NCBI RefSeq assembly: GCF_031769215.1
Contig: NW_026782006.1
Location: 908,070 to 972,069, forward strand
Direction of reading: 5' to 3'
From: Ylistrum balloti
Lineage: Eukaryota
Length of the DNA: 64,000 nucleotides
Shown one piece after another: positions 3,214 to 50,358 of the stretch (positions are counted from its first letter, which is position 1; each line of letters starts with the position of its first letter). The notes under the pieces are model-generated. The model was not told the DNA's origin, ran no database searches, and was given only the letters and a program-made list of their open reading frames with translations. The position numbers and the translations under genes were made by a program.

Positions 3214-3449
3214 AAGTTGAGACTAAGGTGTTTCACTTTGAAAGGTGGTGATTCAACATAATTTTACAGACCATGTATTTGGTCAGTCAAATTAATACCC
3301 CCTGGTCTTCTGAAAAAAAATAAGAGCAAATTTGTCCAGGATATGCCTAATTTATAAACATGAGAAGTTTGCAAAATATTTTCAGAGTAATATATATCAC
3401 ATTTGTAACATCAAATAGTGCTAATTTACTTGATTAAACATTAAATGAT

Positions 3450-6440
3450 GTAACAATCTAACATCTGATGCTGTAGTACTTACTTATACTGCTCTGACTG
3501 TACACAATCTTACATCTGATGCTGTAGTACTGCTCTGACTGTACACAATCTAACATCTGATGCTGTAGTACTTACTTATACTGCTCTGACTGTACACAAT
3601 CTAACATCTGATGCTGTAGTACTTACTTATACTGCTCTGACTGTACACAATCTAACATCTGATGCTGTAGTACTTACTTATACTGCTCTGACTGTACACA
3701 ATCTAACATCTGATGCTGTAGTACTGCTCTGACTGTACACAATCTAACATCTGATGCTGTAGTACTTACTTATACTGCTCTGACTGTACACAATCTAACA
3801 TCTGATGTACTTACTTATACTGCTCTGACTGTGCTGTAGTACTGCTCTGACTGTACACAATCTAACATCTGATGCTGTAGTACTGCTCTGACTGTACACA
3901 ATCTAACATCTGATGCTGTAGTACTTACTTATACTGCTCTGACTGTACACAATCTAACATCTGATGCTGTAGTACTTACTTATACTGCTCTGACTGTACA
4001 CAATCTAACAACATCTGATGCTGTAGTACTTACTTATACTGCTCTGACTGTACACAATCTAACATCTGATCTGACTGACACAATCTAACACTGATTATAC
4101 TGCTCTGACTGTACACAATCTAACATCTGATGCTGTAGTACTTACTTATACTGCTCTGACTGTACACAATCTAACATCTGATGCTGTAGTACTTACTTAT
4201 ACTGCTCTGACTGTACACAATCTAACATCTGATGCTGTAGTACTTACTTATACTGCTCTGACTGTACACAATCTAACATCTGATGCTGTAGTACTTACTT
4301 ATACTGCTCTGACTGTACACAATCTAACATCTGATGCTGTAGTACTTACTTATACTGCTCTGACTGTAAACAATCTAACATCTGATGCTGTAGTACTTAC
4401 TTATACTGCTCTGACTGTACACAATCTAACATCTGATGCTGTAGTACTGCTCTGACTGTACACAATCTAACATCTGATGCTGTAGTACTGCTCTGACTGT
4501 ACACAATCTAACATCTGATGCTGTAGTACTGCTCTGACTGTACACAATCTAACATCTGATGCTGTAGTACTGCTCTGACTGTACACAATCTAACATCTGA
4601 TGCTGTAGTACTTACTTATACTGCTCTGACTGTACACAATCTAACATCTGATGCTGTAGTACTGCTCTGACTGTACACAATCTAACATCTGATGCTGTAG
4701 TACTGCTCTGACTGTACACAATCTAACATCTGATGCTGTAGTACTTACTTATACTGCTCTGACTGTACACAATCTAACATCTGATGCTGTAGTACTGCTC
4801 TGACTGTACACAATCTAACATCTGATGCTGTAGTACTTACTTATACTGCTCTGACTGTACACAATCTAACATCTGATGCTGTAGTACTTACTTATACTGC
4901 TCTGACTGTACACAATCTAACATCTGATGCTGTAGTACTTACTTATACTGCTCTGACTGTACACAATCTAACATCTGATGCTGTAGTACTTACTTATACT
5001 GCTCTGACTGTACACAATCTAACATCTGATGCTGTAGTACTTACTTATACTGCTCTGACTGTACACAATCTAACATCTGATGCTGTAGTACTTACTTATA
5101 CTGCTCTGACTGTACACAATCTAACATCTGATGCTGTAGTACTTACTTATACTGCTCTGACTGTAGTAACAATCTGTACACAACTAACATCTATGCTGTA
5201 GTACTTACTACTGCTGTATCTAACATCTGATGCTGTAGTACTTACTTATACTGCTCTGACTGTACACAATCTAACATCTGATGCTGTAGTACTGCTCTGA
5301 CTGTACACAATCTAACATCTGATGCTGTAGTACTTACTTATACTGCTCTGACTGTAAACAATCTAACATCTGATGCTGTAGTACTTACTTATACTGCTCT
5401 GACTGTACACAATCTAACATCTGATGCTGTAGTACTTACTTATACTGCTCTGACTGTAAACAATCTAACATCTGATGCTGTAGTACTGCTCTGACTGTAC
5501 ACAATCTAACATCTGATGCTGTAGTACTTACTTATACTGCTCTGACTGTACACAATCTAACATCTGATGCTGTAGTACTTACTTATACTGCTCTGACTGT
5601 ACACAATCTAACATCTGATGCTGTAGTACTTACTTATACTGCTCTGACTGTACACAATCTAACATCTGATGCTGTAGTACTGCTCTGACTGTAAACAATC
5701 TAACATCTGATGCTGTAGTACTTACTTATACTGCTCTGACTGTACACAATCTAACATCTGATGCTGTAGTACTGCTCTGACTGTAAACAATCTAACATCT
5801 GATGCTGTAGTACTTACTTATACTGCTCTGACTGTACACAATCTAACATCTGATGCTGTAGTACTGCTCTGACTGTAAACAATCTAACATCTGATGCTGT
5901 AGTACTTACTTATACTGCTCTGACTGTACACAATCTAACATCTGATGCTGTAGTACTTACTTATACTGCTCTGACTGTACACAATCTAACATCTGATGCT
6001 GTAGTACTGCTCTGACTGTAAACAATCTAACATCTGATGCTGTAGTACTTACTTATACTGCTCTGACTGTACACAATCTAATATCTGATGCTGTAGTACT
6101 GCTCTGACTGTAAACAATCTAACATCTGATGCTGTAGTACTTACTTATACTGCTCTGACTGTACACAATCTAACATCTGATGCTGTAGTACTGCTCTGAC
6201 TGTAAACAATCTAACATCTGATGCTGTAATACTGCTCTGACTGTACACAATCTAACATCTGATGCTGTAGTACTGCTCTGACTGTACACAATCTAACATC
6301 TGATGCTGTAGTACTGCTCTGACTGTAAACAATCTAACATCTGATGCTGTAGTACTTACTTATACTGCTCTGACTGTAAACAATCTAACATCTGATGCTG
6401 TAGTACTTACTTGTACTGCTCTAACTGTAAACAATCTAAC
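3450..6440. repeat. 51/42-bp minisatellite (ctaacatctgatgctgtagtac[ttacttata]ctgctctgactgta[c/a]acaat), copy 1
   Basis: Tandem periodicity; long and short units differ by a 9-bp indel. Confidence 0.95.
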
Positions 6441-7425
6441 ACCTCATACTGGTCTTCTACTTCACAACTCATTTCCAAGGCCAATTCCTCCTCCACTTCT
6501 CTATCCAATTCTGAAGACTTGATTAGAATTTGATATTAATCAGAGCTGTATCAAGCAGAAGTTTTTGTCAGATATTGTTAAGAAATCATTCCCTTATCAG
6601 CATAACCCTTGTCAAAAGTCTTAAGAAATGTGGTTTTCCTCATCTTTGAATTATGGGACCAGTATGAATTTCCAGGTGATAAAATTGACTGTCAATGAAA
6701 AAAATCCTTCATCTTAATTTCTCAATCTATTAACCTGTTTGAAAGTGTTGTTTTCTAATATGATAAACACTAGCAGTGATCAACAGTTGGGATATTAGGG
6801 TATTTTATGTAAATATACTAAATTTGTGTGATCAAATTTTAGTGCATCATTACTCTGGCAAATTAGTACGTTGATGAGCTTGTGTATCCATAGTCAAGAT
6901 CAACATGGAAAACTGGAAAAAATATCAGCTAATCAGGTCACACCAGCCTCATTAAATATGCACAGAATTTGCCAATAATCACACTTTAACAAGAGATTAA
7001 GGTAACAAGTCTACCAACCAAGCCTCCTCATAATTCATTTGTTCCTACAAAAGATAACATGTGGAAAGCATTCAGTTAGAGTGTCACAAAATATCAGCCA
7101 ATCAGGTCACAGCAGTCTCATCAAGTATGCATAGAGTTTGCAGATACTCAAACCTGAAGAAGGAATTAATGTAATAAGTCTATAAAGCAAGTTTCCTAAA
7201 AATTCTTATCATTTCTTCTTAAGATAAGGTGCAGAAAGATTTCCCATAGAGTGATTAAAGAAATCAACCAAGTCACAGCAGCCTCATTAAATATGAGCAG
7301 AATTCACCGTTAGTCAAAATTGGGAGAGGGATTAAGGTAACAAGTGAACCAACCAAGTTTCTTCAAAATTCTACCAGTCCTTCTAAAAATATCGTGTGGA
7401 GAGAAATTAAAGAAAACACTCAATC

Positions 7426-7798
7426 AGGTCACAGCAGCCTCATTATCTCAATCAGGTCACAGCAGTCTCATTATCTCAATCAGGTCACAGTAGCCTCATT
7501 ATCTCAATCAGTTCACAGCAGCCTCATTATCTCAATCAGGTCACAGCAGCCTCATTATCTCAATCAGGTCACAGCAGCCTCATTATCTCAATCAGGTCAC
7601 AGCAGCCTCATTATCTCAATCAGGTCACAGTAGCCTCATTATCTCAATCAGGTCACAGCAGCCTCATTATCTCAATCAGGTCACAGCAGCCTCATTTTTC
7701 AATCAGGTCACAGTAGCCTCATTATCTCAATCAGGTCACAGCAGCCTCATTATCTCAATCAGGTCACAGTAGCCTCATTATCTCAATCAGGTCACAGT
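7426..7798. repeat. 28-bp minisatellite (caggtcacagcagcctcattatctcaat), copy 1
   Basis: Tandem periodicity; derived from a motif inside spacer C. Confidence 0.95.
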
Positions 7799-8017
7799 AC
7801 CAAATCACATATCTAGTTGATAAGATTCAAGCTTTTATTGGATATACTCACCTTAGAAGGTATTGGTAATATTCTATCTTTGGAAAACTGTACCACAGGA
7901 GCCCTTCAAATCAAGAATGATGACCATTTAGAAATTATTTCAGGATTGACAATCCATTTTAACATCTATACAACAAATTATTCAACAATTGTTTTATAAC
8001 AAACATTGGAGTACACA

Positions 8018-9307
8018 TCATATAACTCCAGACTATTGTAGACAACATATAACTCAAGGTTATGGTAGACAACATATAACTCCAGATTATGGTAGACAAC
8101 ATATAGCTCCAGGTTATTGCAGACAACATATAGCTCCAGGTTATGGTAGACAACATATAACTCCAGATTATGGTAGACAACATATAACTTCAGGCTATAG
8201 TAGACAACATATAACTCCAGGTTATGGTAGACAACATATAACTCCAGGTTATGGTAGACAACATATAGCTCCAGGTTATTGCAGACAACATATAACTCAA
8301 GGTTATGGTAGACAACATATAACTCCAGGTTATGGTAGACAACATATATCTCCAGACTATGATAGACAACATATAACTCCAGGTTATGGTAGACAACACA
8401 TAACTTCAGGCTATGAAAGACAACATATACCTCCAGACTATGATAGACAACATATAACTCCAGGTTATGGTAGACAACATATAACTCCAGGTTATGGTAG
8501 ACAACATATAGCTCCAGGTTATTGCAGACAACATATAACTCAAGGTTATGGTAGAAAACATATAACTCCAGGTTATGGTAGACAACATATAGCTCCAGAC
8601 TATGATAGACAACATATAACTCCAGGTTATGGTAGACAACATATAACTTCAGGCTATGGTAGACATCAATGAACTCCAGGCTATGGTAGACAACATATAC
8701 CTCCAGGTTATGGTAGACAACATATAACTCCAGGTTATGGAAGACAACATATAACTCCAGGTTACGGTAGACAACATATAACTCAAGGTTATGGTAGACA
8801 ACATATAGCTCCAGGTTATGGTAGACATCATTGAACTCCAGACTATGGTAGACAACATATAACTCAATGTTATGGTAGACAACATATACCTCCACATATC
8901 TCCAGGTTATGGTAGACATCATTGAACTCCAGACTAAGATAAGACAACATATAACTCCAGGTTATGGTAGACAACATATAACTCCAGGTTATGGTAGACA
9001 ACATATAACTCCAGGCTATGGTAGATAACATATAACTCCAGGTTATGGTAGACAACATATAACTCCAGGTTATGGTAGACAACATTGAACTCCAGGTTAT
9101 GGTAGACAACATTGAACTCCAGGCTATGGTAGATAACATATAACTCAAGGTTATGGTAGACAACATATAACTCCAGGTTATGGTAGACAACATATAACTC
9201 CAGGTTATGGTAGACAACATATAACTCCAGGTTATGGTAGACAACATATAACTCCAGGTTATGGTAGACAACATATAACTCCAGGTTATGGTAGACAACA
9301 TATAACT
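8018..9307. repeat. 27-bp minisatellite, copy 2 (about 48 units)
   Basis: Same unit as 2545-3213. Confidence 0.95.
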
Positions 9308-9549
9308 CTAGGTTGAGACTAAGGTGTTTCACTTTGAAAGGTGGTGATTCAACATAATTTTACAGACCATGTATTTGGTCAGTCAAATTAATACCCCCTG
9401 GTCTTCTGAAAAAAAATAAGAGCAAATTTGTCTAGGATATGCCTAATTTATAAACATGAGAAGTTTGCAAAATATTTTCAGAGTAATATATATCACATTT
9501 GTAACATCAAATAGTGCTAATTTGCTTGATTAAACATTAAATTATGTAA

Positions 9550-11565
9550 CAATCTAACATCTGATGCTGTAGTACTTACTTATACTGCTCTGACTGTAAA
9601 CAATCTAACATCTGATGCTGTAGTACTTACTTATACTGCTCTGACTGTAAACAATCTAACATCTGATGCTGTAGTACTGCTCTGACTGTAAACAATCTAA
9701 CATCTGATGCTGTAGTACTTACTTATACTGCTCTGACTGTAAACAATCTAACATCTGATGCTGTAGTACTTACTTATACTGCTCTGACTGTACACAATCT
9801 AACATCTGATGCTGTAGTACTTACTTATACTGCTCTGACTGTAAACAATCTAACATCTGATGCTGTAGTACTTACTTATACTGCTCTGACTGTAAACAAT
9901 CTAACATCTGATGCTGTAGTACTTACTTATACTGCTCTGACTGTACAGATGTACACAATCTAACATCTGATGCTGTAGTACTTACTTATACTGTTCTGAC
10001 TGTACACAATCTAACATCTGATGCTGTAGTACTTACTTATACTGCTCTGACTGTACACAATCTAACATCTGATGCTGTAGTACTTACTTATACTGCTCTG
10101 ACTGTACACAATCTAACATCTGATGCTGTAGTACTGCTCTGACTGTAAACAATCTAACATCTGATGCTGTAGTACTGCTCTGACTGTACACAATCTAACA
10201 TCTGATGCTGTAGTACTTACTTATACTGCTCTGACTGTACACAATCTAACATCTGATGCTGTAGTACTTACTTATACTGCTCTGACTGTACACAATCTAA
10301 CATCTGATGCTGTAGTACTGCTCTGACTGTACACAATCTAACATCTGAAGCTCTAGTACTTACATATACTGCTCTGACTGTACACAATCTAACATCTGAT
10401 GCTGTAGTACTTACTTATACTGCTCTGACTGTACACAATCTAACATCTGATGCTGTAGTACTGCTCTGACTGTAAACAATCTAACATCTGATGCTGTAAT
10501 ACTGCTCTGACTGTACACAATCTAACATCTGATGCTGTAGTACTTACTTATACTGCTCTGACTGTACACAATCTAACATCTGATGCTGTATTACTGCTCT
10601 GACTGTAAACAATCTAACATCTGATGCTGTAGTACTTACTTATACTGCTCTGACTGTACACAATCTAACATCTGATGCTGTAGTACTGCTCTGACTGTAA
10701 ACAATCTAACATCTGATGCTGTAGTACTGCTCTGACTGTAAACAATCTAACATCTGATGCTGTAGTACTGCTCTGACTGTACACAATCTAACATCTGATG
10801 CTGTAGTACTGCTCTGACTGTACACAATCTAACATCTGATGCTGTAGTACTGCTCTAGTACTGCTCTGACTGTACACAATCTAACATCTGATGCTGTAGT
10901 ACTGCTCTGACTGTAAATAATCTAACATCTGATGCTGTAGTACTTACTTATACTGCTCTGACTGTACACAATCTAACATCTGATGTACTTACTTATACTG
11001 CTCTGACTGTACACAATCTAACATCTACAAATTATACTGCTCTGACTGTACACAATCTAACATCTGATGCTGTAGTACTGCTCTGACTGTACACAATCTA
11101 ACAACAGAGTACTGCTCTGACTGTAAACAATCTAACATCTGATGCTGTAGTACTGCTCTGACTGTACACAATCTAACATCTGATGCTGTAGTACTGCTCT
11201 GACTGTACACAATCTAACATCTGATGCTGTAGTACTTACTTATACTGCTCTGACTGTACACAATCTAACATCTGATGCTGTAGACTTACTTATACTGCTC
11301 TGACTGTACACAATCTAACATCTGATGCTGTAGTACTGCTCTGACTGTAAACAATCTAACATCTGATGCTGTAGTACTTACTTATACTGCTCTGACTGTA
11401 AACAATCTAACATCTGATGCTGTAGTACTGCTCTGACTGTACACAATCTAACATCTGATGCTGTAGTACTTACTTATACTGCTCTGACTGTAAACAATCT
11501 AACATCTGATGCTGTAGTACTTACTTGTACTGCTCTAACTGTAAACAATCTAACACCTCATACTG
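9550..11565. repeat. 51/42-bp minisatellite, copy 2
   Basis: Same unit. Confidence 0.95.
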
Positions 11566-12545
11566 GTCTTCTACTTCACAACTCATTTCCAAGGCCAATT
11601 CCTCCTGTCCCTTCTCTATCCAATTCTGAAGACTTGATTAGAATTTGATATTAATCAGAGCTGTATCAAGCAGAAGTTTTTGTCAGATATTGTTAAGAAA
11701 TCATTCCCTTATCAGCATAACCCTTGTCAAAAGTCTTAAGAAATGTGGTTTTCCTCATCTTTGAATTATGGGACCAGTATGAATTTCCAGGTGATAAAAT
11801 TGACTGTCAATGAAAAAAATCCTTCATCTTAATTTCTCAATCTATTAACCTGTTTGAAAGTGTTGTTTTCTAATATGATAAACACTAGCAGTGATCAACA
11901 GTTGGGATATTAGGGTATTTTATGTAAATATACTAAATTTGTGTGATCAAATTTTAGTGCATCATTACTCTGGCAAATTAGTACGTTGATGAGCTTGTGT
12001 ATCCATAGTCAAGATCAACATGGAAAACTGGAAAAAATATCAGCTAATCAGGTCACACCAGCCTCATTAAATATGCACAGAATTTGCCAATAATCACACT
12101 TTAACAAGAGATTAAGGTAACAAGTCTACCAACCAAGCCTCCTCATAATTCATTTGTTCCTACAAAAGATAACATGTGGAAAGCATTCAGTTAGAGTGTC
12201 ACAAAATATCAGCCAATCAGGTCACAGCAGTCTCATCAAGTATGCATAGAGTTTGCAGATACTCAAACCTGAAGAAGGAATTAATGTAATAAGTCTATAA
12301 AGCAAGTTTCCTAAAAATTCTTATCATTTCTTCTTAAGATAAGGTGCAGAAAGATTTCCCATAGAGTGATTAAAGAAATCAACCAAGTCACAGCAGCCTC
12401 ATTAAATATGAGCAGAATTCACCGTATGTCAAAATTGGGAGAGGGATTAAGGTAACAAGTGAACCAACCAAGTTTCTTCAAAATTCTACCAGTCCTTCTA
12501 AAAATATCGAGTGGAGAGAAATTAAAGAAAACACTCAATCAGGTC

Positions 12546-12864
12546 ACAGCAGCCTCATTATCTCAATCAGGTCACACATTATCTCAATCATCACAGTAGC
12601 CTCATTATCTCAATCAGTTCACAGCAGCCTCATTATCTCAATCAGGTCACAGCAGCCTCATTATCTCAATCAGGTCACAGCAGCCTCATTATCTCAATCA
12701 GGTCACAGTCATTATCTCAATCAGGTCACAAGTAGCCTCATTATCTCAATACAGGTCACAGCAGCCTCATTATCTCAATCAGGTCACAGTACACATTATC
12801 TCAATCAGGTCACAGTAGCCTCATTATCTCAATCAGGTCACACATATCTCAATCAGGTCACTGT
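12546..12864. repeat. 28-bp minisatellite, copy 2
   Basis: Same unit. Confidence 0.9.
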
Positions 12865-13086
12865 ACCAAATCACATATCTAGTTGATAAGATTCAAGCTT
12901 TTATTGGATATACTCACCTTAGAAGGTATTGGTAATATTCTATCTTTGGAAAACTGTACCACAGGAGCCCTTCAAATCAAGAATGATGACCATTTAGAAA
13001 TTATTTCAGGATTGACAATCCATTTTAACATCTATACAACAAATTATTCAACAATTGTTTTATAACAAACATTGGAGTACACATCA

Positions 13087-13508
13087 TATAACTCCAGACT
13101 GTAGACAACATATAACTCTGAGGTTATAGTAGACAACATATAACTCCAGATTATGGTAGACAACATATAGCTCCAGGTTATTGCAGACAACATATAGCTC
13201 CAGGTTATGGTAGACAACATATAACTCCAGATTATGGTAGACAACATATAACTTCAGGCTATGATAGACAACATATAACTCCAGGTTATGGTAGACAACA
13301 TATAGCTCCAGGTTATTGCAGACAACATATAACTCAAGGTTATGGTAGACAACATATAACTCCAGGTTATGGTAGACAACATATACTCCAGACTATGTAG
13401 ACAACATATAACTCAGGTTATGGTAGACAACATATAACTCCAGGTTATGGTAGACAACTGTAGTACAACATTAACTCCAGGTTATGGTAGACAACATATA
13501 ACTCTTAT
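13087..13508. repeat. 27-bp minisatellite, copy 3, degenerate with many small indels
   Basis: Same unit but decayed; runs directly into the 51-bp array with spacer B missing. Confidence 0.8.
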
Positions 13509-15605
13509 GGTAGACTAACATCTGAACAATATCTAACATCTGATGCTGTAGTACAACTTATAACTGCTCTGACTGTACTGCTCTGACTAACTCTGATGCT
13601 GTAGTACTTAAACTGCTCTGACTGTACACAATCTAACATCTAACATATACTGCTCTGACTGTACACAATCTAACATCTGATGCTGTAGTACTTACTTATA
13701 CTGCTCTGACTGTACACAATCTAACATCTGATGCTGTAGTACTTACTGACTGTAAACAATACTGCTCTGATGCCTACTTACAACATGTAGAATTTAACAT
13801 CTGATGCTGTACTTACTATATACTGCTCTGACTGTACACAATCTAACATCTGATGCTGTAGCTTACTTATACTGCTCTGACTGTACACAATCTAACATCT
13901 GATGCTGTAGTACTTACTTATACTGCTCTGACTGTAATCTAACAATCTAACATCTGATGCTGTAGTACTTACTTATACTGCTCTGACTGTACACAATCTA
14001 ACATCTGATGCTGTAGTACTGCTCTGACTGTACACAATCTAACATCTGATGCTGTAGTACTGCTCTGACTGTACACAATCTAACATCTGATGCTGTAGTA
14101 CTGCTCTGACTGTAAACAATCTAACATCTGATGCTGTAGTACTGCTCTGACTGTACACAATCTAACATCTGATGCTGTACTGCTCTGACTGTACACAATC
14201 TAACATCTGACTGTAGTACTTACTTATACTGCTCTGACTGTACACAATCTAACATCTGATGCTGTAGTACTGCTCTGACTGTACACAATCTAACATCTGA
14301 TGCTGTAGTACTTACTTATACTGCTCTGACTGTACACAATCTAACATCTGATGCTGTAGTACTGTACACAATCTAACATCTACTTATACTGCTCTGACTG
14401 TACACAATCTAACATCTGATGCTGTAGTACTTACTTATACTGCTCTGACTGTACACAATCTAACATCTGATGCTGTACTGCTCTGACTGTACACAATCTA
14501 ACATCTGATGCTGTAGTACTGCTCTGACTGTACACAATCTAACATCTGATGCTGTAGTACTTACTTATACTGCTCTGACTGTACACAATCTAACATCTGA
14601 TGCTGTAGTACTTACTTATACTGCTCTGACTGTAAACAATCTAACATCTGATAGCTGCTCTGACTGTACACAATCTAACATCTGATGCTTATACTGCTCT
14701 GACTGTACACAATCTAACATCTGATGCTGTAGTACTTACTTATACTGCTCTGACTGTACACAATGACTGTACACAATCTAACATCTGATGCTGTAGTACT
14801 TACTTATACTGCTCTGACTGTACACAATCTAACATCTGATGCTGTAGTACTGCTCTGACTGTACACAATCTAACATCTGATGCTGTAGTACTTACTTATA
14901 CTGCTCTGACTGTAAACAATCTAACATCTGATGCTGTAGTACTGCTCTGACTGTACACAATCTAACATCTGATGCTGTAGTACTTACTTATACTGCTCTG
15001 ACTGTACACAATCTAACATCTGATGCTGTAGTACTTACTTATACTGCTCTGACTGTACACAATCTAACATCTGATGCTGTAGTACTGCTCTGTACACAAT
15101 CTAACATCTGATGCTGTAGTACTTACTTATACTGCTCTGACTGTACACAATCTAACATCTGATGCTGTAGTACTTACTTATACTGCTCTGACTGTAAACA
15201 ATCTAACATCTGATGCTGTAGTACTTACTTATACTGCTCTGACTGTACACAATCTAACATCTGATGCTGTAGTACTGCTCTGACTGTAAACAATCTAACA
15301 TCTGATGCTGTAGTACTGCTCTGACTGTACACAATCTAACATCTGATGCTGTAGTACTGCTCTGACTGTAAACAATCTAACATCTGATGCTGTAGTACTG
15401 CTCTGACTGTAAACAATCTAACATCTGATGCTGTAGTACTGCTCTGACTGTAAACAATCTAACATCTGATGCTGTAGTACTGCTCTGACTGTAAACAATC
15501 TAACATCTGATGCTGTAGTACTTACTTATACTGCTCTGACTGTAAACAATCTAACATCTGATGCTGTAGTACTTACTTGTACTGCTCTAACTGTAAACAA
15601 TCTAA
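13509..15605. repeat. 51/42-bp minisatellite, copy 3 (5-prime part scrambled)
   Basis: Same unit; first ~1.3 kb has many indels. Confidence 0.9.
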
Positions 15606-16595
15606 CACCTCATACTGGTCTTCTACTTCACAACTCATTTCCAAGGCCAATTCCTCCTTCCCTTCTCTATCCAATTCTGAAGACTTGATTAGAATTTGAT
15701 ATTAATCAGAGCTGTATCAAGCAGAAGTTTTTGTCAGATATTGTTAAGAAATCATTCCCTTATCAGCATAACCCTTGTCAAAAGTCTTAAGAAATGTGGT
15801 TTTCCTCATCTTTGAATTATGGGACCAGTATGAATTTCCAGGTGATAAAATTGACTGTCAATGAAAAAAATCCTTCATCTTAATTTCTCAATCTATTAAC
15901 CTGTTTGAAAGTGTTGTTTTCTAATATGATAAACACTAGCAGTGATCAACAGTTGGGATATTAGGGTATTTTATGTAAATATACTAAATTTGTGTGATCA
16001 AATTTTAGTGCATCATTACTCTGGCAAATTAGTACGTTGATGAGCTTGTGTATCCATAGTCAAGATCAACATGGAAAACTGGAAAAAATATCAGCCAATC
16101 AGGTTACACCAGCCTCATTAAATATGCACAGAATTTGCCAATAATCACACTTTAACAAGAGATTAAGGTAACAAGTCTACCAACCAAGCCTCCTCATAAT
16201 TCATTTGTTCCTACAAAAGATAACACGTGGAAAGCATTCAGTTAGAGTGTCACAAAATATCAGCCAATCAGGTCACAGCAGTCTCATCAAGTATGCATAG
16301 AGTTTGCAGATACTCAAACCTGAAGAAGGAATTAATGTAATAAGTCTGTAAAGCAAGTTTCCTAAAAATTCTTATCATTTCTTCTTAAGATAAGGTGCAG
16401 AAAGATTTCCCATAGAGTGATTAAAGAAATCAACCAAGTCACAGCAGCCTCATTAAATATGAGCAGAATTCACCGTTAGTCAAAATTGGGAGAGGGATTA
16501 AGGTAACAAGTGAACCAACCAAGTTTCTTCAAAATTCTACCAGTCCTTCTAAAAATATCGTGTGGAGAGAAATTAAAGAAAACACTCAATCAGGT

Positions 16596-16810
16596 CACAG
16601 CAGCCTCATTATCTCAATCAGGTCACATCAGCCTCATTATCTCAATCAGGTCACAGTAGCCTCATTATCTCAATCAGGTCACATCAGCCTCATTATCTCA
16701 ATCAGGTCACATCAGCCTCATTATCTCAATCAGGTCACAGTAGCCTCATTATTTCAATCATGTCACAGTAGCCTCATTATCTTGATCAGGTCACAGTAGC
16801 CTCATTATCT
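16596..16810. repeat. 28-bp minisatellite, copy 3
   Basis: Same unit. Confidence 0.9.
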
Positions 16811-18982: not shown

Positions 18983-19478
18983 AGATATTATGATGGTAAA
19001 GACTCACACCATTATAGATATTACGATGGTAAAGACTCACACCATTATAGATATTACGATGGTAAAGACTCACACCATTATAGATATTACGATGGTAAAG
19101 ACTCACACCATTATAGATATTACGATGGTAAAGACTCACACCATTATAGATATTATGATGGTAAAGACTCACACCATTATAGATATTACGATGGTAAAGA
19201 CTCACTCACACCATTATAGATATTACGATGGTAAAGACTCACAACATTATAGATATTACGATGGTAAAGACTCACACCATTATAGATATTACGATGGTAA
19301 AGACTCACACCATTATAGATATTACGATGGTAAAGACTCACACCATTATAGATATTACGATGGTAAAGACTCACACCATTATAGATATTACGATGGTAAA
19401 GACTCACACCATTATAGATATTACGATGGTAAAGACTCACACCATTATAGATATTATGATGGTAAAGACTCACATTGT
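18983..19478. repeat. 33-bp minisatellite (attatagatattacgatggtaaagactcacacc), about 15 copies
   Basis: Tandem periodicity; unit is a multiple of 3, which gives spurious repeat ORFs on both strands. Confidence 0.95.
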
Positions 19479-20845: not shown

Positions 20846-23800
20846 CTGAAAGAAACACTGGTCATCATAAATTTTATATGTATACAGAACAAACTAATCA
20901 GACAAGCATACAGACATTTTATTTTATCATTGGACTAATATGATTGACAGTACAGACCAAAAATGTGATATCTGACCCTCAAAGTCAAATGTGTGAGATT
21001 CAACATATGATAGTCAAATATATGACAAACTAGAAAAGTTTTTCTGTGCGCAAAATTTTAAATCAAATGTTAACCAATTTCTCCCTCAATACCTGGCAGC
21101 AAAGTTAAAAAAAAGAAATGAATTTTTGTAACAATACAGTTAACATAACATATGTCCAATTCAGAGTTTCAATTAAATTATTTGTTCTTTCCCTCAATCA
21201 AACCTTGTCACGCTTCTCAACAGCTATGAAGCTTGTCAGCTGAGTGACGATGGAGAACTCCTTGCTCAGTCTGATAATGTAATCCTTCATGTCCATCTTC
21301 ATCCTCTGTCAAGGTGAAAGGATAAAGGTGACTGCACAAAAACACATCAGAAATGATGCAACACCACTACATTTACAAAAAACCTGAAGTTTTATTTTAA
21401 AGTTTGACCTTGAAGTACAATCCTTAAAATTTGACCTTGAAATACAAACAATGTCCAGCTTTTCTCATATTTGACCAAAGATGATGTTCTTAAAATACAA
21501 ATCTCACCTGTTGATTGAGACCGTCTGATGACAAGAGTCCATCCTCCCAGTCACGGATGATAGCTTTGGCTGCCAGCTGGTGCAAAATCTGTCGTAACAT
21601 AAATAAAGTGAGGGATAGAGGAGATTCAACACCTTGAGATGTATTGGTGATCATATTGGTAAAAGGACCACTTTCTGAAATCAATTTACATGAGATCCAA
21701 CGATATTAATTTGGACAAATATCCAAAGTAACAAACAATTTGATTATGTGAGTTTTACCTTTCCTTTAGATACATAGCGGTCAGATTTGGTCACTACAGC
21801 CGATATTTCTTGGTCACCTATTTCAGCGGTCAGGGTTGCCTGTGAAGTAATACAGCGTTGTTATATAGTCATTTCCTCAAGTCACAAAGAGCAGACCTGT
21901 ATTTTGCCATCATAAGCCCATGAGTATAAAAGTAAGTCAAGAGATTTGAAATATTGTGCCTAAATATCAATCTAGCAAAATTATACATAAAGTTGGCACA
22001 ATCAAACTTACATACATGGAAAATTGTCAGAATGTATCACAGATCACATGGCAGTGATTTCCTGAGAAATTCCAGTCAGATGAGTTCTATTCCCTCATGG
22101 ATCACTTTGATGTGAAGAAAGTTAAGTTTAACTACTAGTATAGCTTTTAACTATAATGCCACAAAACAATCTGACACCAGCCTATGAAAACTTCCACTTC
22201 ATTCTTTGAATTAAGAGAGCTTCACATAAACATGCTTAGATTGAAATTTCAATACAATCAATAAATATGATACATTAGCCATCAAAAGATAGTACATGGC
22301 TATTACAGGACTGACATAACATTTCCCATAAATTCCCATCACTAAGGTTTTTTATGTTCCTGCAAATTGAAATGGTCATATACACCAACCCAACAATACC
22401 TGGGTTTTCCTCAATACTCTGGTTTCCTCCCTCATTAAGACCCCACACTTACTCCAGGCTAACAACAGTGATTCATATTTTTAGCTACAAGTGTTTTTGC
22501 AATAGTTGTAAAATGAAGTTAATATGAAGATTTGACATGAAGGACATATAGAAGCACTTACGCTGGCACAGTTCTGAACAAATCCATAAACTACTATCCT
22601 TGATCCACTAAATACAGCTGTAATTTGATTGGGTGCCTGTTTTGGAGGCGGAGCACCATATTCCTGTTGCCAGGAGACAGCCACTGATGTCAGTCCAGGT
22701 TGACCTGCTTTAGCAATCTGGGACTTCACCTTGGAAAATCCGAGAACATTCATTTGAAAACTGGGAGATCATCCCCCCTCCATACAACTGTTAACACTCT
22801 CTACAATTAAACATGCTAATATGACCAAGAAACAAATATCATCAAGTCGTTTGTACCGCTGGGCTTGATACATCTTCTTAGTTAGATTGGTTCAGCAAAA
22901 GACTAGTAAGCCAAAGGTCACGAGTTCGAATTGTAAAGGAGGCATTGAAATCAATTATGATCTTGATTACAAGTTTAACACTTGTATAGAGACTTGGGAA
23001 TGATACTTTGCATTGCTTTAACCACTAGACACTCAAGGACAAGTTCTTTCCTAAAGGGAGAGTAAGTAACCCTGGTAAAATACTAGCCACAGTATACTGG
23101 TAAGCTGGAGAGATTTTTGGTTTGACTGGGGCATGACAAGTAAACCAGAGCATCTGGAGTTGATCATTACCAGAGGCTTTAAAACAAATAATGACCTCTG
23201 TTACATATCCAAATCATGAAACCATAACAAAACAACTTGTTTTAATGTATTCAGATTACCTATCTTATAAAAGTATCTCGTTAATAATGTGTTTTACCTT
23301 TTCTTCCCACTTTGACTTTGCTTTACTATCAAATCCTTCGAATACTCCAGCTCCAACACGAGCCAGTGCTCCAAGCACGTGACGGTTCATCATACTGCTG
23401 TAATAAATAGAAAAGAATGAAGCCCACAGTCGTTAATGGTCTTTAACAGCAGGGAGAAGGGATATTTTTTCTATTTTGAATGAAATCTTTCTAAAAGTAT
23501 GATTTTCAAGATGGCAGTCATGGTGGCCATCTTGGATTTCAGAGAGACCCAAAAAATAACAATCCTTTGTCAGGACCATCTCAGGATCATTTCATGCAAG
23601 TTTGAGCTCAATTCCTCTGTTGGAACTTCAGAAGAAGTTAAAATGTCAGAAGTTTATGCACGGTGAATGACAATTGACGAAGCCTGATCATGACCCTTAG
23701 GGTTAGATGACCTTACAAATATATATAGATTAATAAAAGAATAAACAAGGACAGTGATGTTACACAAGGTGGGAGGAAATAATCATTGTATCAATATTTT

Positions 23801-26800
23801 GATTAATCTTCTTAAAGAGGTCTACTTAAAATTATTTCAAGAAAATTTGCAAATTTAAATTGGTAAGTACAAAATATGGGAGTTAAGAAGATTACATACC
23901 TAACACCAAAGGTAAACACTCGCGTGTGCTGGGAATTCTTGTGTACAGTGTCCATGGTGATGTCCTGATTGTTAATATGCCCATCAGACACAAGGAAAAT
24001 ATTCCGTAATGCACTCTCTGGTTTGAGCAGGTAGAATGAATGTAAAGGTCGGTACAAATCTGTATTTCCCATGTTTGCATCTACAGACTGTAATGATAAA
24101 GGTGACTTTCAACATTAAATAGTCAATTACACTGTTGAGTGATGCTGATTGGATCAGCAAAGAGTGAAACATTTTCCTTATCAATGGCTCTGTAATATCC
24201 CTTATCATCATTAATTACCGCTAAATAACAATTATTTCTAATAAATTCCTGTAATATCCCTTATCATCATTAATTACCGCTAAATAACAATTATTTCTAA
24301 TAAATTCCTGTAATATCCCTTATCATCATTAATTACCGCTAAATAACAATTATTTCTAATAAATTCCTGTAATATCCCTTATCATCATTAATTACCGCTA
24401 AATAACAATTATTTCTAATAAATTCCTGTAATATCCCTTATCATCATTAATTACCGCTAAATAACAATTATTTCTAATAAATTCCTGTAATATCCCTTAT
24501 CATCATTAATTACCGCTAAATAACAATTATTTCTAATAAATTCCTGTAATATCCCTTATCATCATTAATTACCGCTAAATAACAATTATTTCTAATAAAT
24601 TCCAAGAAGATCCCTGTAGCTGTTTCAAAGTAATAGTGATGATGAGAGTGGTTTACAAATGGACAACAACCACTTATGATATGGTGGAGGTACCTCATGT
24701 TACTGACCTGTATTAGAACTTCAGCTGTAGAGACACTGGACTTGTTCTTCGGTTGGCTTGAAGGGAAAAGTTCACGGAAAGCTGATGAAGACAACAGACA
24801 AGTCATAATTTAAAAAATGCTATGTAAATCCAGCAGACACACAAAAACATCCCTATATGAACACAACTAAATTCTCCAGCAACCATTCAATGTCCCAATT
24901 CAAGGAAACCATTACACTTCAGTTTCACTTCAGAGATAACAAAGCTTCTAAAAATTTATATGTGAAAGCTACAATCTGAAGTTTAACCAATGTACTTACC
25001 TGTCCCAAAAATGACAACATTGAATTTCCAGGTTTTAGGCAGGAAGTGGAGGATAAGAAGCAGAATCTTCTTGGCCTCATTCAAACCCTTGTCTGTCATG
25101 GAGTTGGACAAGTCAAGCATGAGGATGACCTCTGACTCATTGTCCTCACAGGCCTCAAACTCGGGGTAAAACGTCAACATACAGGCCTAGGATAAAACAG
25201 TAGAATGTCAACATATAGGGCAAGGATAAACAGTACAATGTCAACACACAGGCCTAGTATAAACAGTTCAATGTCAACATATAGGGCTAGAGTGAACATT
25301 AGAATGTCAACATACAGGCCTAGTATAAACAGTAAAATGTCAACATACAGGGCTAGGATAAACAGTAAAATGTCAACATACAGGCCTAATATAAACAGTA
25401 CAATGTCAACGTACAGGCCTAGTTTAAACAGTAAAATGTCAACATATAGGGCTAGAGTGAACATTAGAATCTAAACATACAGGCCTAGTATAAACAGTAA
25501 AATGTCAACATACAGGGCTAGGATAAACAGTAAAATGTCAACATACAGGCCTAATATAAACAGTACAATGTCAACATACAGGTCTAGTATAAACAGTAGA
25601 ATGTCAATATATAGGTCTTGGGTGAACATTAGAATCTAAACATACAGGTCTAGGGTGAATAATAAAATGTCAACATGTCAACATACAGGTCTAGAGTGAA
25701 CATTACGATGCCAACGTACAGGTCTAGGATAAAACATTAGAATGTCAACATACAGGCCTAGGATAAAACAGTAGAATGTCAACATACAGGCCTAGGATAA
25801 AACAGTACAATGTCAACATACAGGTCTAGGATAAAACAGTACAATGTCAACACACAAGCCTAGTATAAACAGTTCAATGTCAACATACAGGCCTAGGATA
25901 AAACAGTACAATGTCAACATATAGGGCAAGGATAAACAGTACAATGTCAACACACAGGCCTAGTATAAACAGAACAATGTCAACGTACAGGCCTAGGATA
26001 AAACAGTACAATGTCAACATATAGGGCAAGGATAAACAGTACAATGTCAACATACAGGCCTAGGATAAAACAGTACAATGTCAACATACAGGCCTAGGAT
26101 AAAACAGTTGAAAACCAAGCTTGACTGCTGCTTCTCTCCTACCAAATTTCATGTGAACTTCTTACAAATTAAAATGAATTAAAAACTTCTTGAGGAAGAA
26201 GTTGTATTAAGATTCCCATACTGATCTCTCACCTGCTTTGTTGGATCATCTTCACTCTGTTCTACCCACATACGAGGGACATGAGCCTCTGCTAACTCCA
26301 AAAGAAGTTGAAAGCCATCACCAATATTTAGATTTGGTTCCATCACCACAAGGACTGTAGATTGTTCAGGCTACAATATAACCAAGGTACATCTGACTGT
26401 AACATTGACCTGCTTTGCTTTCTCATCATATACAGATTAGTGACAAAAATTTGGAAACGACAGCATTTAAAATATAAATTATGATCAACTAATTCAAGAG
26501 GTCCAATAGGGTCCTTGGTGCAAAAAGGACAGATAAACAAACCGAGGACAGATTGACTCACCACAAAACAGGCAAAGTTAGAACAGTTCTATCCATCACT
26601 GGACAAATAGTCTTCCTGGGGACAATTTGATCTATCACAAAACAGACAGACTGAGGACAGTTTGACCCACCACAGAACTGACAAACTTAGGGCAGCTTGA
26701 GTCACCCAAGGACAGATAGACAGACTGAAGATAGGCTAACCTCTCACTAGAAATACAGACTGAAGAGACTACAAGACACTACAGTACACACAGACACATT

Positions 26801-29800
26801 GAGGACTGCCTGATTTAAGACAGAGAGAGACAAAGAACATTTTGAGCCACAAAAGGACAAACAACAGATGTGCTATAATGATAGGCACTTATACATAACA
26901 ATATTCCAATGTAAAACCGACAACTAAAGTTTACAAAAATAGTGTGCTACATTTGCAATGTAAAATAATTACCCCTAAATAAATACTGTGATGATGAAGC
27001 TATACGATGTTAACATCTATGTCGCAGTGTAAGGCTCACTCAACAGACATAACTGTGATGATGAAGCTATACGATGTTAACATATTATCTATGTCGCAGT
27101 GTAAGGCTCACTCAACAGACATAACTGTGATGATGAAGCTATACGATGTTAACATCTATGTCGCAGTGTAAGGCTCACTCAACAGACATAACTGTGATGA
27201 TGAAGCTATACGATGTTAACATATGATCTATGTCGCAGTGTAAGGCTCACTCAACAGACATAACTGTGATGATGAAGCTATACGATGTTAACATATTATC
27301 TATGTCGCAGTGTAAGGCTCACTCAACAGACATAACTGTGATGATGAAGCTATACGATGTTAACATATTATCTATGTCGCAGTGTAAGGCTCACTCAACA
27401 GACATAACTGTGATGATGAAGCTATACGATGTTAACATATTATCTATGTCGCAGTGTAAGGCTCACTCAACAGACATAACTGTGATGATGAAGCTATACG
27501 ATGTTAACATATTATCTATGTCGCAGTGTAAGGCTCACTCAACAGACATAACTGTGATGATGAAGCTATACGATGTTAACATCTATGTCGCAGTGTAAGG
27601 CTCACTCAACAGACATAACTGTGATGATGAAGCTACTATACGATGTTAACATCTATGTCGCAGTGTAAGGCTCACTCAACAGACATAACTGTGATGATGA
27701 AGCTATACGATGTTAACATATTATCTATGTCGCAATGTAAGGCTCACTCAACAGACATAACTGTGATGATGAAGCTATACGATGTTAACATATTATCTAT
27801 GTCGCAGCGTAAGGCTCACTCAACAGACATAACTGTGATGAAGAAAATGTTACCTTGCCATTCTTTATCTTCTTCACTTGACCTTTATCATCAATGCTCT
27901 ACAAAATAAAATCAACACCCAATTTGATATTTATAGATGTAACACATTGAACATTTCTGCCGTAAGTAGTTGCCTTTTTGTATTATACATTCAGTGCCCT
28001 TACTTACTCACTTTATCACAAAGCTTTCAAAATGGTGTGTTATTGACAGTTCGAAAAAAATAAACTAAAAATGTCCTTTTTTATTACAAAATTACAAATC
28101 AAGTAAATGAGTTGATATTTATTTTTAATATAACTTTGATGTAAAAGTGATTAAAATCAATTTGAAAATTGAAAAAAGAGGTTGCTAACTCAATAATAAA
28201 TGTCTCAGTGCCATGGAGTTGCCGAATGCTTACTTAGTTTGTAAAACAGATATACATTTCAGCATTAAAAAATTGTTTAAAATACTACGTATCATATAAT
28301 GCTTGTTTACTTTGTAAAATAAATACAAATTACAACATGACTGCATAATACCTCTTTAATATGTTCACTAGAGTGATCTGTTTAATGGATTTGAGTGCAG
28401 GATTATGCTAACAGAAACGTAAGGTAATATGCAGGGGTTTATAATTCTATATATAAATAGTCATTAAAGATAGTGTAAATTTAATTACCCAGCAAATGTT
28501 TTCACACTTAATCCAAATGTCCCAAAATTTATGTTACCATGCCTATGTTGGTAACAATGTAGAGACATGCCTGATATTTGATATATGTGAACTTGCCTAA
28601 GCTTGGACATCTGGGAAACATTAGCCCTGCAAAATTATTGTTAAATATAGTTTTCCTCCATTTTGAACAGTTGTTAAATGTTCCACATTAATTAAGTGGT
28701 AAAAAGAAACAATAATATATTTAGTCAACATTTCTCAACCGAAAATCTAAATGTGATTTTCTTCTGACCTTAATCTATGTGGGCACTGAAATCTAACCAG
28801 GTGCACACCCTGACAGGTCTGGTGTGAATATAAAGTAACATGCACAGCTTGTACACAAGAATGACTTTTGACCTTCCACTTTGATTGATGACAACCAAAT
28901 TCTAGTCGGGTATAGATCTTGGTGGGGTTCATGAGGCATCTTGTACACAAACTTTTTACATCAGAAGTAGTCAAGGGTGAACTTTGACCTTTAACCATGA
29001 CCAAAGATCACTGAAAGCTCCAAGGTAAACCCTGGTGGGGTTAAGATATAGTTTGAACATAAAGTAAAATTGTAAGGGGTCATGAGATATATTGTGCACA
29101 GTTTACCATGGACAATTGGACAAATTGCTTACTTTATACACACCCTTCCCTTACTAAAGTGAGTGGTATAATTATTTCTGTCTGTGACTTACTTAAGTGA
29201 TTTGAGAATCAAACTATGAAATACATACCGCAATCATAATTTCATGGGTTGGGCTATGGACACTTCTTATGTCGAAGGGCATGTCCACTGCCACCTCTAC
29301 ACAGCATTCAATGTCCTTGGGGAAGGAAACAAAACCAGTTTTATCAACAGTCAGAAATATACACCAGGGATCCAAACGGGATGTTGGCACCAGTTTACCT
29401 CTATTTGTTCTTCAAAAGTTGGGAATATTTTTTCACTTCTTTTATCCCTGTTTTTGCTCTAAACTGAAGGAAATTTAAAAATTCTTTTGAAGAAATAGTG
29501 ATAACCTTTAACTATCAAATCAATGATGGTTGCTAGCCATTATTGTTTTTCTAATCAGTTTCACAACCAAAAGGCACAACTAGGTTCCAAGAGAAATCTA
29601 CATAATTCTGAAATTTGAGAAAGATCCAGTCCTACTCAAGAAATAACAAAGTTATATTGTCAAAATCAAAGATGGCCACCTGTCAGCCAATTAGATTTTT
29701 TATCTATCCCAAAATACAAAATCAAAATGCACAACTAAGGACCAAAGGGCACCTACATATGAAATTGGAGAAAGATCCATCAAGCACTGTATAGTGATAC

Positions 29801-38800: not shown

Positions 38801-41800
38801 GCACTTGCAAAATAGATTCCGGCTCCTAACATTCCGGCATCTGTCCTCTTCCCTCCAAAGTCATCCACAACAACCTTTGGCATCAGAAGACCCCTTGGGA
38901 ACCCAATATAATCATACTGATACAAATTAAACTTTCAGGACACAGAGTCCACCCCCTTCATTCACTTGTCCAGATTTGAGTGGGAACAAAATAAAACTTT
39001 ATCAGTTTTCAAAACATTTCCTCATGTTGTCTTAAATACCACCAAACAAATACAGACATTAATAGAGAATATCTCCATCTGTTACCAAAAGGAAGTCTGA
39101 TGTTGGATTGTCTACGACTGTCATGTACTGTAACAGGGGGTCCAAGTTATGTGTTAAGTCCAGTGCAGATGTTCCATACATTAGGCTTGTTCCCAGAGTA
39201 TATCATTAACTACAGTAAAGTATAAACACTTTGGTGATGAGCTTACCTAGACAAAATCCCAACCAGTAAAGTATAAACACTTTGGTGATGAGCTTACCTA
39301 GACAAAATCCCAACCAGTAAAGTATAAACACTTTGGTGATGAGCTTACCTAGACAAAATCCCAACCAGTAAAGTATAAACACTTAGGTGATGAGCTTACC
39401 TAGACAAAATCCCAACCAGTTAAGTATAAACACTTTGGTGATGAGCTTACCTAGACAAAATCCCAACCAGTAAAGTTTAAACACTTTGGTGATGAGCTTA
39501 CCTAGACAAAATCCCAACCAGTAAAGTATAAACACTTTGGTGATGAGCTTACCTAGACAAAATCCCAACCAGTAAAGTATAAACACTTAGGTGATGAGCT
39601 TACCTAGACAAAATCCCAACCAGTAAAGTATAAACACTTTGGTGATGAGCTTACCTAGACAAAATCCCAACCAGTAAAGTTTAAACACTTTGGTGATGAG
39701 CTTACCTAGACAAAATCCCAACCAGTAAAGTATAAACACTTTGGTGATGAGCTTACCTAGACAAAATCCCAACCAGTAAAGTATAAACACTTAGGTGATG
39801 AGCTTACCTAGACAAAATCCCAACCAGTAAAGTATAAACACTTTGGTGATGAGCTTACCTAGACAAAATCCCAACCAGTAAAGTTTAAACACTTTGGTGA
39901 TGAGCTTACCTAGACAAAATCCCAACCAGTAAAGTATAAACACTTTGGTGATGAGCTTACCTAGACAAAATCCCAACCAGTAAAGTATAAACACTTAGGT
40001 GATGAGCTTACCTAGACAAAATCCCAACCAGTAAAGTTTAAACACTTTGGTGATGAGCTTACCTAGACAAAATCCCAACAAAGTTGTTTGGTTTTGAAGC
40101 ATGAAACAGGAGATTCTGACCAAATAGTTCCTTGGTAAAGTTATCCTCTTCCATCTGTCTTTGTACCTCAAACACGTTAATTATGTTCAGTCTGGTGTTC
40201 CTAATGTACAGAAAATAGAAAAGTTTGATTACTTTGTTTACAACCAACAAGTGGTAGGAGCATGTTCAGATCACAACATGTTCTTTCTATATGTATCATA
40301 AAAAATTCAGATTACTTCACCTAAAATAACCCATACTTTGAATAACGAGCCCATTAAAACAGATCACAACCAGTCTACAATGTTCACAGCTTCACTTTTA
40401 TTGTCATAGACCACTTCTACTTAGAAGCAAGTTTACATTTAACGCTATAAACTTGTCACCAGTAAATGTAACTGCTTCTGCAATCATTGATTTCAACAAC
40501 TTTTGTTTGTAAAGAGTTGCTTACACCAATTTTATGTGTTTCCAAAATGTAATTAGTAGTAAAATAAAGAGTAAAACTGATCCTGAATCTATTTGCTAAA
40601 AGTAAAATAAAGAGCAAAGCTGATCCTGAGTCTATTTGCTAAAAGTAAAATAAAGAGTAAAACTGATCCTGAATCTATTTGCTAAAAGTAAAATAAAGAG
40701 TAAAACTGATCCTGAATCTATTTGCTAAAAGTAAAATAAAGAGCAAAGCTGATCCTGAATCTATTAGCTAAAAGTAAAATAAAGAGCAAAACTGATCCTG
40801 AATCTATTTGCTAAAAGTAAAATAAAGAGCAAAGCTGATCCTGAATCTATTAGCTAAAAGTAAAATAAAGAGTAAAACTGATCCTGAATCTATTTGCTAA
40901 AAGTAAAATAAAGAGCAAAGCTGATCCTGAATCTATTAGCTAAAAGTAAAATAAAGAGTAAAACTGATCCTGAATCTATTTGCTAAAAGTAAAATAAAGA
41001 GCAAAGCTGATCCTGAATCTATTAGCTAAAAGTAAAATAAAGAGTAAAACTGATCCTGAATCTATTAGCTAAAAGTAAAATAAAGAGTAAAACTGATCCT
41101 GAATCTATTTGCTAAAAGTAAAATAAAGAGTAAAACTGATCCTGAATCTATTTGCTAAAAGTAAAATAAAGAGTAACGCTGATCCTGAATCTATTAGCTA
41201 AAAGTAAAATAAAGAGTAAAATTGAACCTGAATCTATTTGCTAAAAGTAAAATAAAGAGCAAAGCTGATCCTGAATCTATTTGCTAAAAGTAAAATAAAG
41301 AGCAAAGCTGACCCTGAATTTATTTGCTAAAAGTAAAATATAGAGCAAAGCTGATCCTGAATCTATTTGCTAAAAGTAAAATAACGACCAAAGCTGATCC
41401 TGAGTCTATTTGCTAAAAGTAAAATAAAGAGCAAAGCTGATCCTGAATCTATTTGCTAGAAGTAAAATAAAGAGTAAAGCTGACCCTGAATCTATTTGCT
41501 AAAAGTAAAATATAGAGCAAAGCTGATCCTGAATCTATTTGCTAAAAGTAAAATAACGACCAAAGCTGATCCTGAATCTATTAACTAAAAGTAAAATAAA
41601 GAGCAAAACTGATCCTGAATCTATTTGCTAGAAGTAAAATAAAGAGTAAAGCTGATCCTGAATCTATTAGCTAAAAGTAAAATAAAGAGCAAAGCTGATC
41701 CTGAGTCTATTTGCTAAAAGTAAGATAAAGAGCAAAGCTGATCCTGAATCTATTTGCTAAAAGTAAAATAAAGAGCAAAACTGATCCTGAATCTATTTGC

Positions 41801-50319: not shown

Positions 50320-50358
50320 TCAATTCCGTAACTTTGCAAGTCTCTGCGTTAACTCATC
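50320..50358 (-). CDS. CHMP1: CHMP1 terminal exon DELTQRLAKLRN*
   Basis: Acceptor ctttttcttcag|; matches CHMP1B C-terminus DELSQRLARLRDQV. Confidence 0.8.
   Translation of the reverse strand, partial: DELTQRLAKLRN

Follow-up and report, generated by a model that had tools for sequence, protein, structure and literature searches.

A minisatellite built from a splice acceptor and the adjoining exon start in a PARP4-type gene of Ylistrum balloti

The vWA exon of the PARP4-type gene and the intron preceding it

A 64-kb stretch of Ylistrum balloti DNA (contig NW_026782006.1; the whole stretch is referred to below as the window) carries on its minus strand a gene of the PARP4 (vault PARP) type, in which most of the intron preceding the vWA domain is occupied by a minisatellite whose units reproduce the splice acceptor of that intron together with the first codons of the following exon. 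When the conserved minus-strand open reading frame (ORF) pieces of the window were concatenated into a conceptual protein, Pfam matches were obtained to BRCT (8e-14), PARP (8.5e-30), VIT (2.1e-34), and VWA_3 (2.4e-18), in that order. Because the BRCT, PARP catalytic, VIT, and VWA domains follow one another in this way, the gene is assigned the BRCT-PARP-VIT-VWA architecture of PARP4, in agreement with a preliminary description of the sequence; orthology to vertebrate PARP4 was judged by architecture alone. The gene appears to be intact, and the vWA exon is approximately the 18th to 20th coding exon in a rough gene model. The features of the locus are listed here with the evidence for each in parentheses; a slash marks a splice junction, and copies of the acceptor other than the one joined to the exon are called decoys.

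25000..25186, minus strand: authentic exon of 187 nucleotides (nt), 5' phase 0, start of the vWA domain with the DxSxS metal ion-dependent adhesion site (MIDAS) motif (translation, homologues, Pfam)
25187..25188, minus strand: AG of the authentic acceptor, ctgttttatcctag/GCC (sequence, orthologous loci, unit table)
25187..26232, minus strand: intron of 1046 nt, donor CAG/GTGAGA at 26232, acceptor CCTAG/ at 25187 (sequence; flanking exons set by homology)
26233..26370, minus strand: upstream exon, end of the VIT region, PEQSTVLVVMEPNLNIGDGFQLLLELAEAHVPRMWVEQSEDDPTKQ, donor CAG/GTGAGA (ORF list; homologues of the form ...IHVPRMW...Q-ACML)
25166..26108, minus strand: minisatellite (Tandem Repeats Finder, motif scan, in-register unit table and alignment)
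25204..25220, minus strand: exon-like part of decoy unit 27, adjoining the real site, with AG changed to TG and a branch-point-like TTGAC (sequence)
25757..26106, minus strand: distal part of the array with five perfect decoys, units 1, 2, 7, 10, and 11 (comparison with the real site)

The exon (25186-25000) translates as ACMLTFYPEFEACEDNESEVILMLDLSNSMTDKGLNEAKKILLLILHFLPKTWKFNVVIFGT; it begins with ACMLTFYPEFEACEDNESEVILMLDLSNSM, ends with FNVVIFGT, and encodes ACMLTFYPEF...DLSNSM, and the Pfam matches to VWA_3, VWA, and VWA_2 begin within it. The upstream exon (26370-26233) terminates in ...VPRMWVEQSEDDPTKQ, and its junction with the intron reads ...DPTKQ/gtgaga. Since the authentic acceptor contributes a TAG in the frame of the vWA exon, reading into the exon from upstream in that frame ends there.

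Tandem Repeats Finder (TRF) placed the minisatellite at window positions 25166-26108 on the gene strand, with a period of 33, 28.1 copies, and 82% matches. Approximately 920 nt of the intron belong to the array, and the remaining ∼124 nt of unique sequence lie between the donor and the first unit. A scan of the 64 kb with the 19-mer CCTAGGCCTGTATGTTGAC gave 27 matches at ≤3 mismatches, all on the minus strand and all inside 25173-26098, compared to 0.01 matches expected from dinucleotide-preserving shuffles. The unit is real, strongly nonrandom, and restricted to the PARP4-type locus within the window. The preliminary description had proposed a tandem array built from an acceptor and an exon start, reaching 0.9 kb into the intron and merging with the real exon, and this anatomy was recovered.

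Units were delimited in register by anchoring on the exon-like core. The split gave 28 units, 27 decoys and the authentic junction unit, with lengths of 33 or 34 nt and a single unit of 41 nt. In each, 12 to 13 nt taken from the intron's 3' terminus, TGTTT(T)ATCCTAG, precede a 21-nt copy of the exon start (GCCTGTATGTTGACnTTnTAC). The exon-like 21 nt of the consensus, GCCTGTATGTTGAC(A/G)TT(G/T/C)TAC, correspond to seven codons, ACMLT[F/L]Y, rather than the five codons first described. The terminal unit is the real acceptor, and the TRF edge at 25166 lies 21 nt inside the exon, which makes the array continuous with it.

An AG is present at the homologous position in 24 of the 27 decoys and is replaced by TG in units 3, 6, and 27, which belong to one sub-family. 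The initial count of about 27 acceptor copies is thus correct for decoy units but too high for decoy AGs. The pyrimidine run that had been noted upstream of the sites is present but short (9/11 in the real site and 6-9/11 in the decoys). From -14 to +14, five decoys (units 1, 2, 7, 10, and 11) show no difference from the authentic site; they sit in the distal array, 571 to 907 nt upstream of it. The nearest 16 decoys all deviate from the real site in having a poorer pyrimidine tract, a nucleotide other than G at +1, or no AG. Mean pairwise identity among units is 79%. Because units 17-20 and 22-25 form a five-unit higher-order block, part of the growth of the array was by multi-unit duplication.

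The octamer AGGCCTGT of the acceptor has a further copy in the interior of the exon (codons E-A-C; 25148-25155, minus strand), exactly 33 nt downstream. The spacing equals one array period, in register, and may represent either microhomology that aids slippage or coincidence. Since EFEACE is likewise present in homologues from other species, the interior copy was not imported from the array. This octamer was also considered as the seed of the array and was rejected, the last 10 to 12 nt of the unit mismatching the exon interval and resembling the intron tail.

Origin of the array and recurrence of junction-spanning repeats

A search with the two flanking exons yielded 31 exon-sized ORFs from eukaryotic contigs, and (Q)ACMLTFYPEFE was found in nearly all of them. 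Many of these ORFs read ...FQ-ACML, a read-through of a ...ttcag acceptor, the general form being ...Q-ACMLTFYPEFEA, and a few run unbroken over the junction (...DSQACMLTF...). The preliminary description had suggested a comparison with related species, and four orthologous loci from other species (L001 to L004) were compared. All four have the intron at the identical position and phase, with the junction ...AG/GC(C/A)TG(T/C)ATG(T/C)TGAC..., and none has a tandem array at this acceptor (TRF). Their intron tails are unique and mutually unrelated. L001 is closest, with 77% amino acid identity over the exon and a shared tctag/GCCTGTATGTTGAC. Together with the translation and the homologues, these junctions bear out the proposal that the unit copies the acceptor of the exon encoding the DLSNSM MIDAS motif.

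Because the four loci have the same intron with unique tails and without the array, and because the unit occurs nowhere else in the window, the sequence comparison indicates that the exon start and the intron are older than the array and that copying went from the junction to the array. An exact 22-mer scan of metagenome contigs gave no match and thus no second copy or haplotype of the locus, and a look-up of the window's own exon ORF gave no entry.

The array lies in repeat-rich surroundings. Tandem repeats with a period of ≥10 make up 40.4% of the window, in which at least 20 distinct minisatellite families with units of 25 to 77 bp can be told apart, and nearly every intron of the PARP4-like gene has one. 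Two of these arrays repeat a donor junction, and a third starts beside a putative donor:

39213-40079, minus strand: array K, donor type, 51 bp x 17, 97% matches; the unit opens with the terminal 17 nt of the PARP catalytic exon and its donor
50849-50993, minus strand: array M, donor type, 50 bp x 2.9, in the neighboring CHMP1-like gene (sequence)
18983-19474, minus strand: array B, 33 bp x 15, 96% matches; it starts 1 nt before a putative donor (..EYSPDN/GTGAGT)

The unit of array K begins GTTGGGATTTTGTCTAG/GTAAGC, and the array presents 17 perfect TCTAG/GTAAG donors spaced 51 nt apart, the first of which is the authentic one. The PARP catalytic exon (...NNFVGILS-R) ends in the first copy, and its continuation is cccaag/GGGTCTTCTG (GLLMPK...). 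Read-through into the array gives AGG TAA, an in-frame stop, immediately. Array M repeats the end of the penultimate exon (..ASSTASSEQ), ...GTGAACAG/GTAGGT, together with 27 nt of intron, and a fourth, degenerate copy follows; its two decoy donors, CAG/GTAAGT, are nearer to the consensus than the authentic CAG/GTAGGT. The gene that carries array M is CHMP1-like (Snf7 family, ESCRT-III), occupies 50358-52640 on the minus strand immediately upstream of the PARP4-like gene and on the same strand, and has its final exon, DELTQRLAKLRN followed by a stop codon, at about 50358. Array B repeats GTGAGT 15 times; its unit corresponds to 11 codons with one frame open except for one 37-nt unit, and the exon at its edge is putative.

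Junction-spanning duplications were also observed in the orthologous gene in three of the four related loci. In L001, the exon that directly precedes the ACML exon has its donor repeated in 2.6 copies (1134-1254). L002 has two acceptor-type repeats (7349-7610 and 11269-11567), which comprise an acceptor and 78 nt of a VIT exon in 2.4 copies and an acceptor and 126 nt of the next vWA exon in 1.8 copies. In L004 an exon end of 81 nt plus GTGAGT is present in two copies (donor type; 8397-8577). No junction-type array was noted in L003, the arrays of which were not checked one by one.

The other arrays of the gene region that were compared in register with their flanks (A, C, F, G, I, J, and L, with N and O lying further upstream) proved to be intronic or intergenic throughout, flank identity falling at once to 18 to 47%. 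Arrays G, L, and F start 17, 25, and 8 nt past a real or putative donor, yet have no junction origin. A rough estimate of random placement, which assumed ∼51 junctions, ∼11 kb of unique intron, and ∼45-nt units, suggests that, if seed duplications were placed at random, ∼16% of them would cross a junction, or ∼1.6 among the 10 arrays located where the gene is well mapped. Two were observed, so no special mechanism would be needed to account for them.

Splice-site choice and interpretation

When each decoy was joined in phase 0 to the upstream exon, a stop codon was encountered after 6 to 59 codons in every case. The majority of the decoys are out of frame with the exon (distance not divisible by three), and those in frame are also blocked because the TAG of the authentic acceptor is an in-frame stop. 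Because every decoy product runs into an early stop, no productive isoform can arise from the decoys. Judged by sequence, they are candidate acceptors and not a source of protein isoforms, and any RNA spliced to them would be expected to be a substrate for nonsense-mediated decay.

The array fills the 920 nt upstream of the authentic AG, and for this reason the branch point and the pyrimidine tract of the real acceptor must sit in the terminal unit or units. Within the TGTTGAC that unit 27 derives from the exon there is a TTGAC resembling yUnAy, its A lying at about 25208 (-22); given the yUnAy consensus and the usual spacing of 18 to 40 nt, it is the likely branch point candidate. With the AG of unit 27 lost, the 66 nt upstream of the real site form an AG-free stretch that includes two TTGAC-like motifs, with their A at -22 and -55. 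The choice of the last of the 25 sites with an AG could plausibly depend on closeness to the enhancers of the exon and to its donor, 187 nt downstream (exon definition), on the weaker sequence of every decoy less than 540 nt away, and on the loss of the AG in the adjacent unit. The units read CCTAG/GCCTGT, and the AG is therefore not directly followed by a GT donor consensus as it would be in a recursive splice site.

Minisatellites of this kind have been described. Amphioxus "mirages" were first reported at Adh3 (Canestro et al. 2002, as cited in PMC3087553) and then in the globin genes BflGb6 and BflGb9 (PMC3087553), and similar repeats are carried by TnC and PGBD5 (PMC3902484). Both types of boundary can be duplicated, AG or GT is kept in many but not all units, and reverse transcription-PCR showed normal splicing (PMC3087553, PMC3902484). 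BflGb6 is an acceptor-type case, in which the intron's 3' end and the 5' portion of exon 2 form 3 to 6 copies of 150- to 160-bp units (PMC3087553). The length of mirage arrays differs between haplotypes, and array edges escape homogenization. Like the mirages, the array described here consists of tandem junction-spanning units that keep the AG in many but not all copies; mirage units are 81 to 100% alike, form sub-families, and occur in genes rich in other intronic minisatellites, and the same kind of setting is seen here. The units are head to tail, each combines intron and exon, the authentic junction is terminal, splice signals persist in 24 of the 27 decoys, and such arrays recur in the genome. 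The array matches the mirages in every feature that can be examined in the sequence and differs in scale, with units of 33 to 34 bp compared to 150 to 160 bp in BflGb6 and 27 decoys compared to 3 to 6 copies. Splicing fidelity, length polymorphism, and somatic instability were demonstrated at the amphioxus loci.

Donor-type minisatellites are known in human genes: the 37-bp variable-number tandem repeat (VNTR) in F7 IVS7, IFI6 (6-16) intron 2 with 25 pseudo-sites, CBS IVS13, LMNB2, and PDGFA intron 4, in each of which the first monomer spans the exon/intron boundary (PMC1557585). The copy attached to the exon is the sole site used in F7, LMNB2, and PDGF, and the two nearest pseudo-sites are used in addition in IFI6 and CBS (PMC1557585). 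Only the most upstream site is used in F7, a 5'-to-3' scanning-type preference, and the pseudo-sites work only once the upstream ones have been inactivated (PMC1557585). The array in the vWA intron resembles these cases in that many copies of an authentic splice site lie in the intron beside it, and it is their mirror image in that acceptors, not donors, are repeated and lie upstream of the exon. Arrays K and M are exactly of the F7 donor type. A "first site wins" rule as in F7 would choose the wrong end of the acceptor array, so the acceptor must be selected by some other rule. No named human VNTR of the acceptor type turned up in a search of the literature.

Multiple related acceptor AGs that compete at one intron end are also a feature of NAGNAG acceptors, which lie 3 nt apart and give in-frame one-codon variants, and of recursive sites, in which AG and GT must be juxtaposed. 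The array differs from both: spacing is 33 to 34 nt, the AG is followed by GCCTGT, and no product is both in frame and open.

These observations suggest that the array is probably a mirage-type minisatellite, a tolerated by-product of frequent tandem duplication in which the copy attached to the exon is the one used. A 33- to 34-bp segment over the intron/exon boundary, comprising the last 12 to 13 nt of the intron and the first 21 nt of the vWA exon, would have been duplicated in tandem. Slippage or unequal exchange would then have amplified it to 27 extra copies, including the five-unit higher-order block. The copy still joined to the body of the exon would have remained the working acceptor, and the other copies lie in the intron and would be removed with it. 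Such an array could persist since the mature mRNA would be unchanged, and occasional use of a decoy would be expected to lead to a premature stop and nonsense-mediated decay. Most likely the array is a neutral outcome of the very high rate at which minisatellites arise in this genome, and its functional significance is probably low.

Several points weigh against this interpretation. Use of the last AG and silence of the decoys are predictions from the sequence. Over a span of 28 nt, five decoys match the real site exactly. As transcription reaches the upstream sites first, there is no trivial explanation of how the last copy would be chosen accurately. All 16 of the nearest decoys differ from the real site and the adjacent one has no AG, a pattern that might reflect selection against strong decoys close to the exon instead of strict neutrality. 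The connection with the amphioxus arrays is one of kind, not of taxon.

A regulatory role is conceivable. The decoys could compete as a bank of acceptors and channel an adjustable share of the PARP4 pre-mRNA into stop-containing transcripts targeted by nonsense-mediated decay, or they could slow or gate splicing of the intron. There are 24 decoys with an AG, a pyrimidine tract, and a branch-point-like TTGAC ∼20 nt upstream, five of them identical to the real site, and the early stop in every decoy product would suit such a role. RNA of the array (25150-26140, minus strand) also folds somewhat better than shuffled sequences (minimum free energy, -239.7 kcal/mol; z = -3.6 with only 20 shuffles), with the near-palindromic GUAUGUUGACAUUGUAC pairing adjacent units. 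However, tandem repeats often outfold shuffles for trivial reasons, and the fold is regarded as a generic property of a repeated, weakly self-complementary unit and not as functional evidence; no match to a known RNA family (Rfam) was found across 23500-27500. The array is absent from the four other species, similar arrays occur at unrelated junctions and in another gene of the window in numbers that, by the rough estimate above, fit random placement, and no aberrant splicing was found in the published mirages (PMC3087553, PMC3902484). It therefore seems unlikely that the decoys serve as a regulatory bank. Further-reaching proposals, in which the 24 acceptors would set the fraction of PARP4 transcripts spliced productively with copy number tuning expression, or in which arrays in this lineage might arise preferentially at splice sites through replication slippage linked to splicing or R-loops, are more doubtful still.

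The remaining explanations fare worse. It is very unlikely that the minisatellite is a satellite or transposon-borne repeat resembling the exon start by chance, or that its copy number is an artifact of assembly. The window is indeed packed with unrelated minisatellites, and the copy numbers of such arrays are hard to assemble. However, the 19-mer is confined to the array within the 64 kb, the match of 21 nt plus the AG is in register, the array runs on into the exon, and other species share the conserved exon sequence. The units are also diverged, with sub-families and the five-unit block, although the exact copy number could still be wrong. Use of the decoys as productive alternative acceptors that add 11-residue modules ahead of the vWA domain can be given hardly any weight: the 33-nt period is divisible by three and one frame is open for up to 98 codons over part of the array, but every decoy joined in phase 0 meets its stop within 6 to 59 codons, most are out of frame, and the TAG of the acceptor stops the rest.

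Birth of the intron itself by tandem duplication of exonic sequence (the Rogers or internal-duplication model), with the array as a remnant, is equally far-fetched. Gao and Lynch reportedly described intron gain by internal tandem duplication in 2009. A case is known in potato RdRp (PMC4974935), and new introns have been suggested to arise by way of mirage repeats (PMC3087553). The likeness lies in a tandem duplication with AG/G(T)-type junction sequence inside a gene; here, unlike in intron gain, an ancestral intron was only lengthened and no new intron was formed. An intron that arose in this way would be absent from relatives and bounded by duplicate copies, whereas L001 to L004 share its position and phase without repeats and many homologous ORFs read ...cag/GCC.... 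The conserved junction in these four loci rules out, as we read it, that the unit resembles the exon by chance, that it is a satellite borne by a transposon, and that the duplication created the intron.

The phenomenon, interpreted as a mirage-type minisatellite, is thus of a kind already known from amphioxus and from human F7 IVS7, and the array represents a large acceptor-type case with short units. With 24 upstream decoy acceptors at a conserved, presumably essential junction, it is a natural case of unusual size in which to test how 3' splice sites are chosen, and a single gene presents both mirror-image cases, the acceptor array and a 17-copy array of perfect donors. The array is also a hazard for annotation, as gene predictors can select a decoy acceptor.

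Further tandem repeats in the window

The next intron downstream contains at 24190-24603 an array of 59 bp x 7 with copies that are 100% identical; it is not derived from a junction and looks very recent. Its unit ends in ..TATTACAG, which resembles the nearby real acceptor ..cattacag.

A composite block of ∼4 to 5.5 kb is present in three tandem copies at about window positions 2500-16810, with the same short ORFs in each copy and the order 27-mer array, 51-mer array, ∼1 kb of unique sequence, and 28-mer array:

2537, 8011, and 13101: 27-mer arrays of the composite block
3449, 9545, and 13791: 51-mer arrays of the composite block
7419, 12534, and 16585: 28-mer arrays of the composite block

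A separate 77-bp array lies at window positions 1-1555. The GC content is 32 to 38%.

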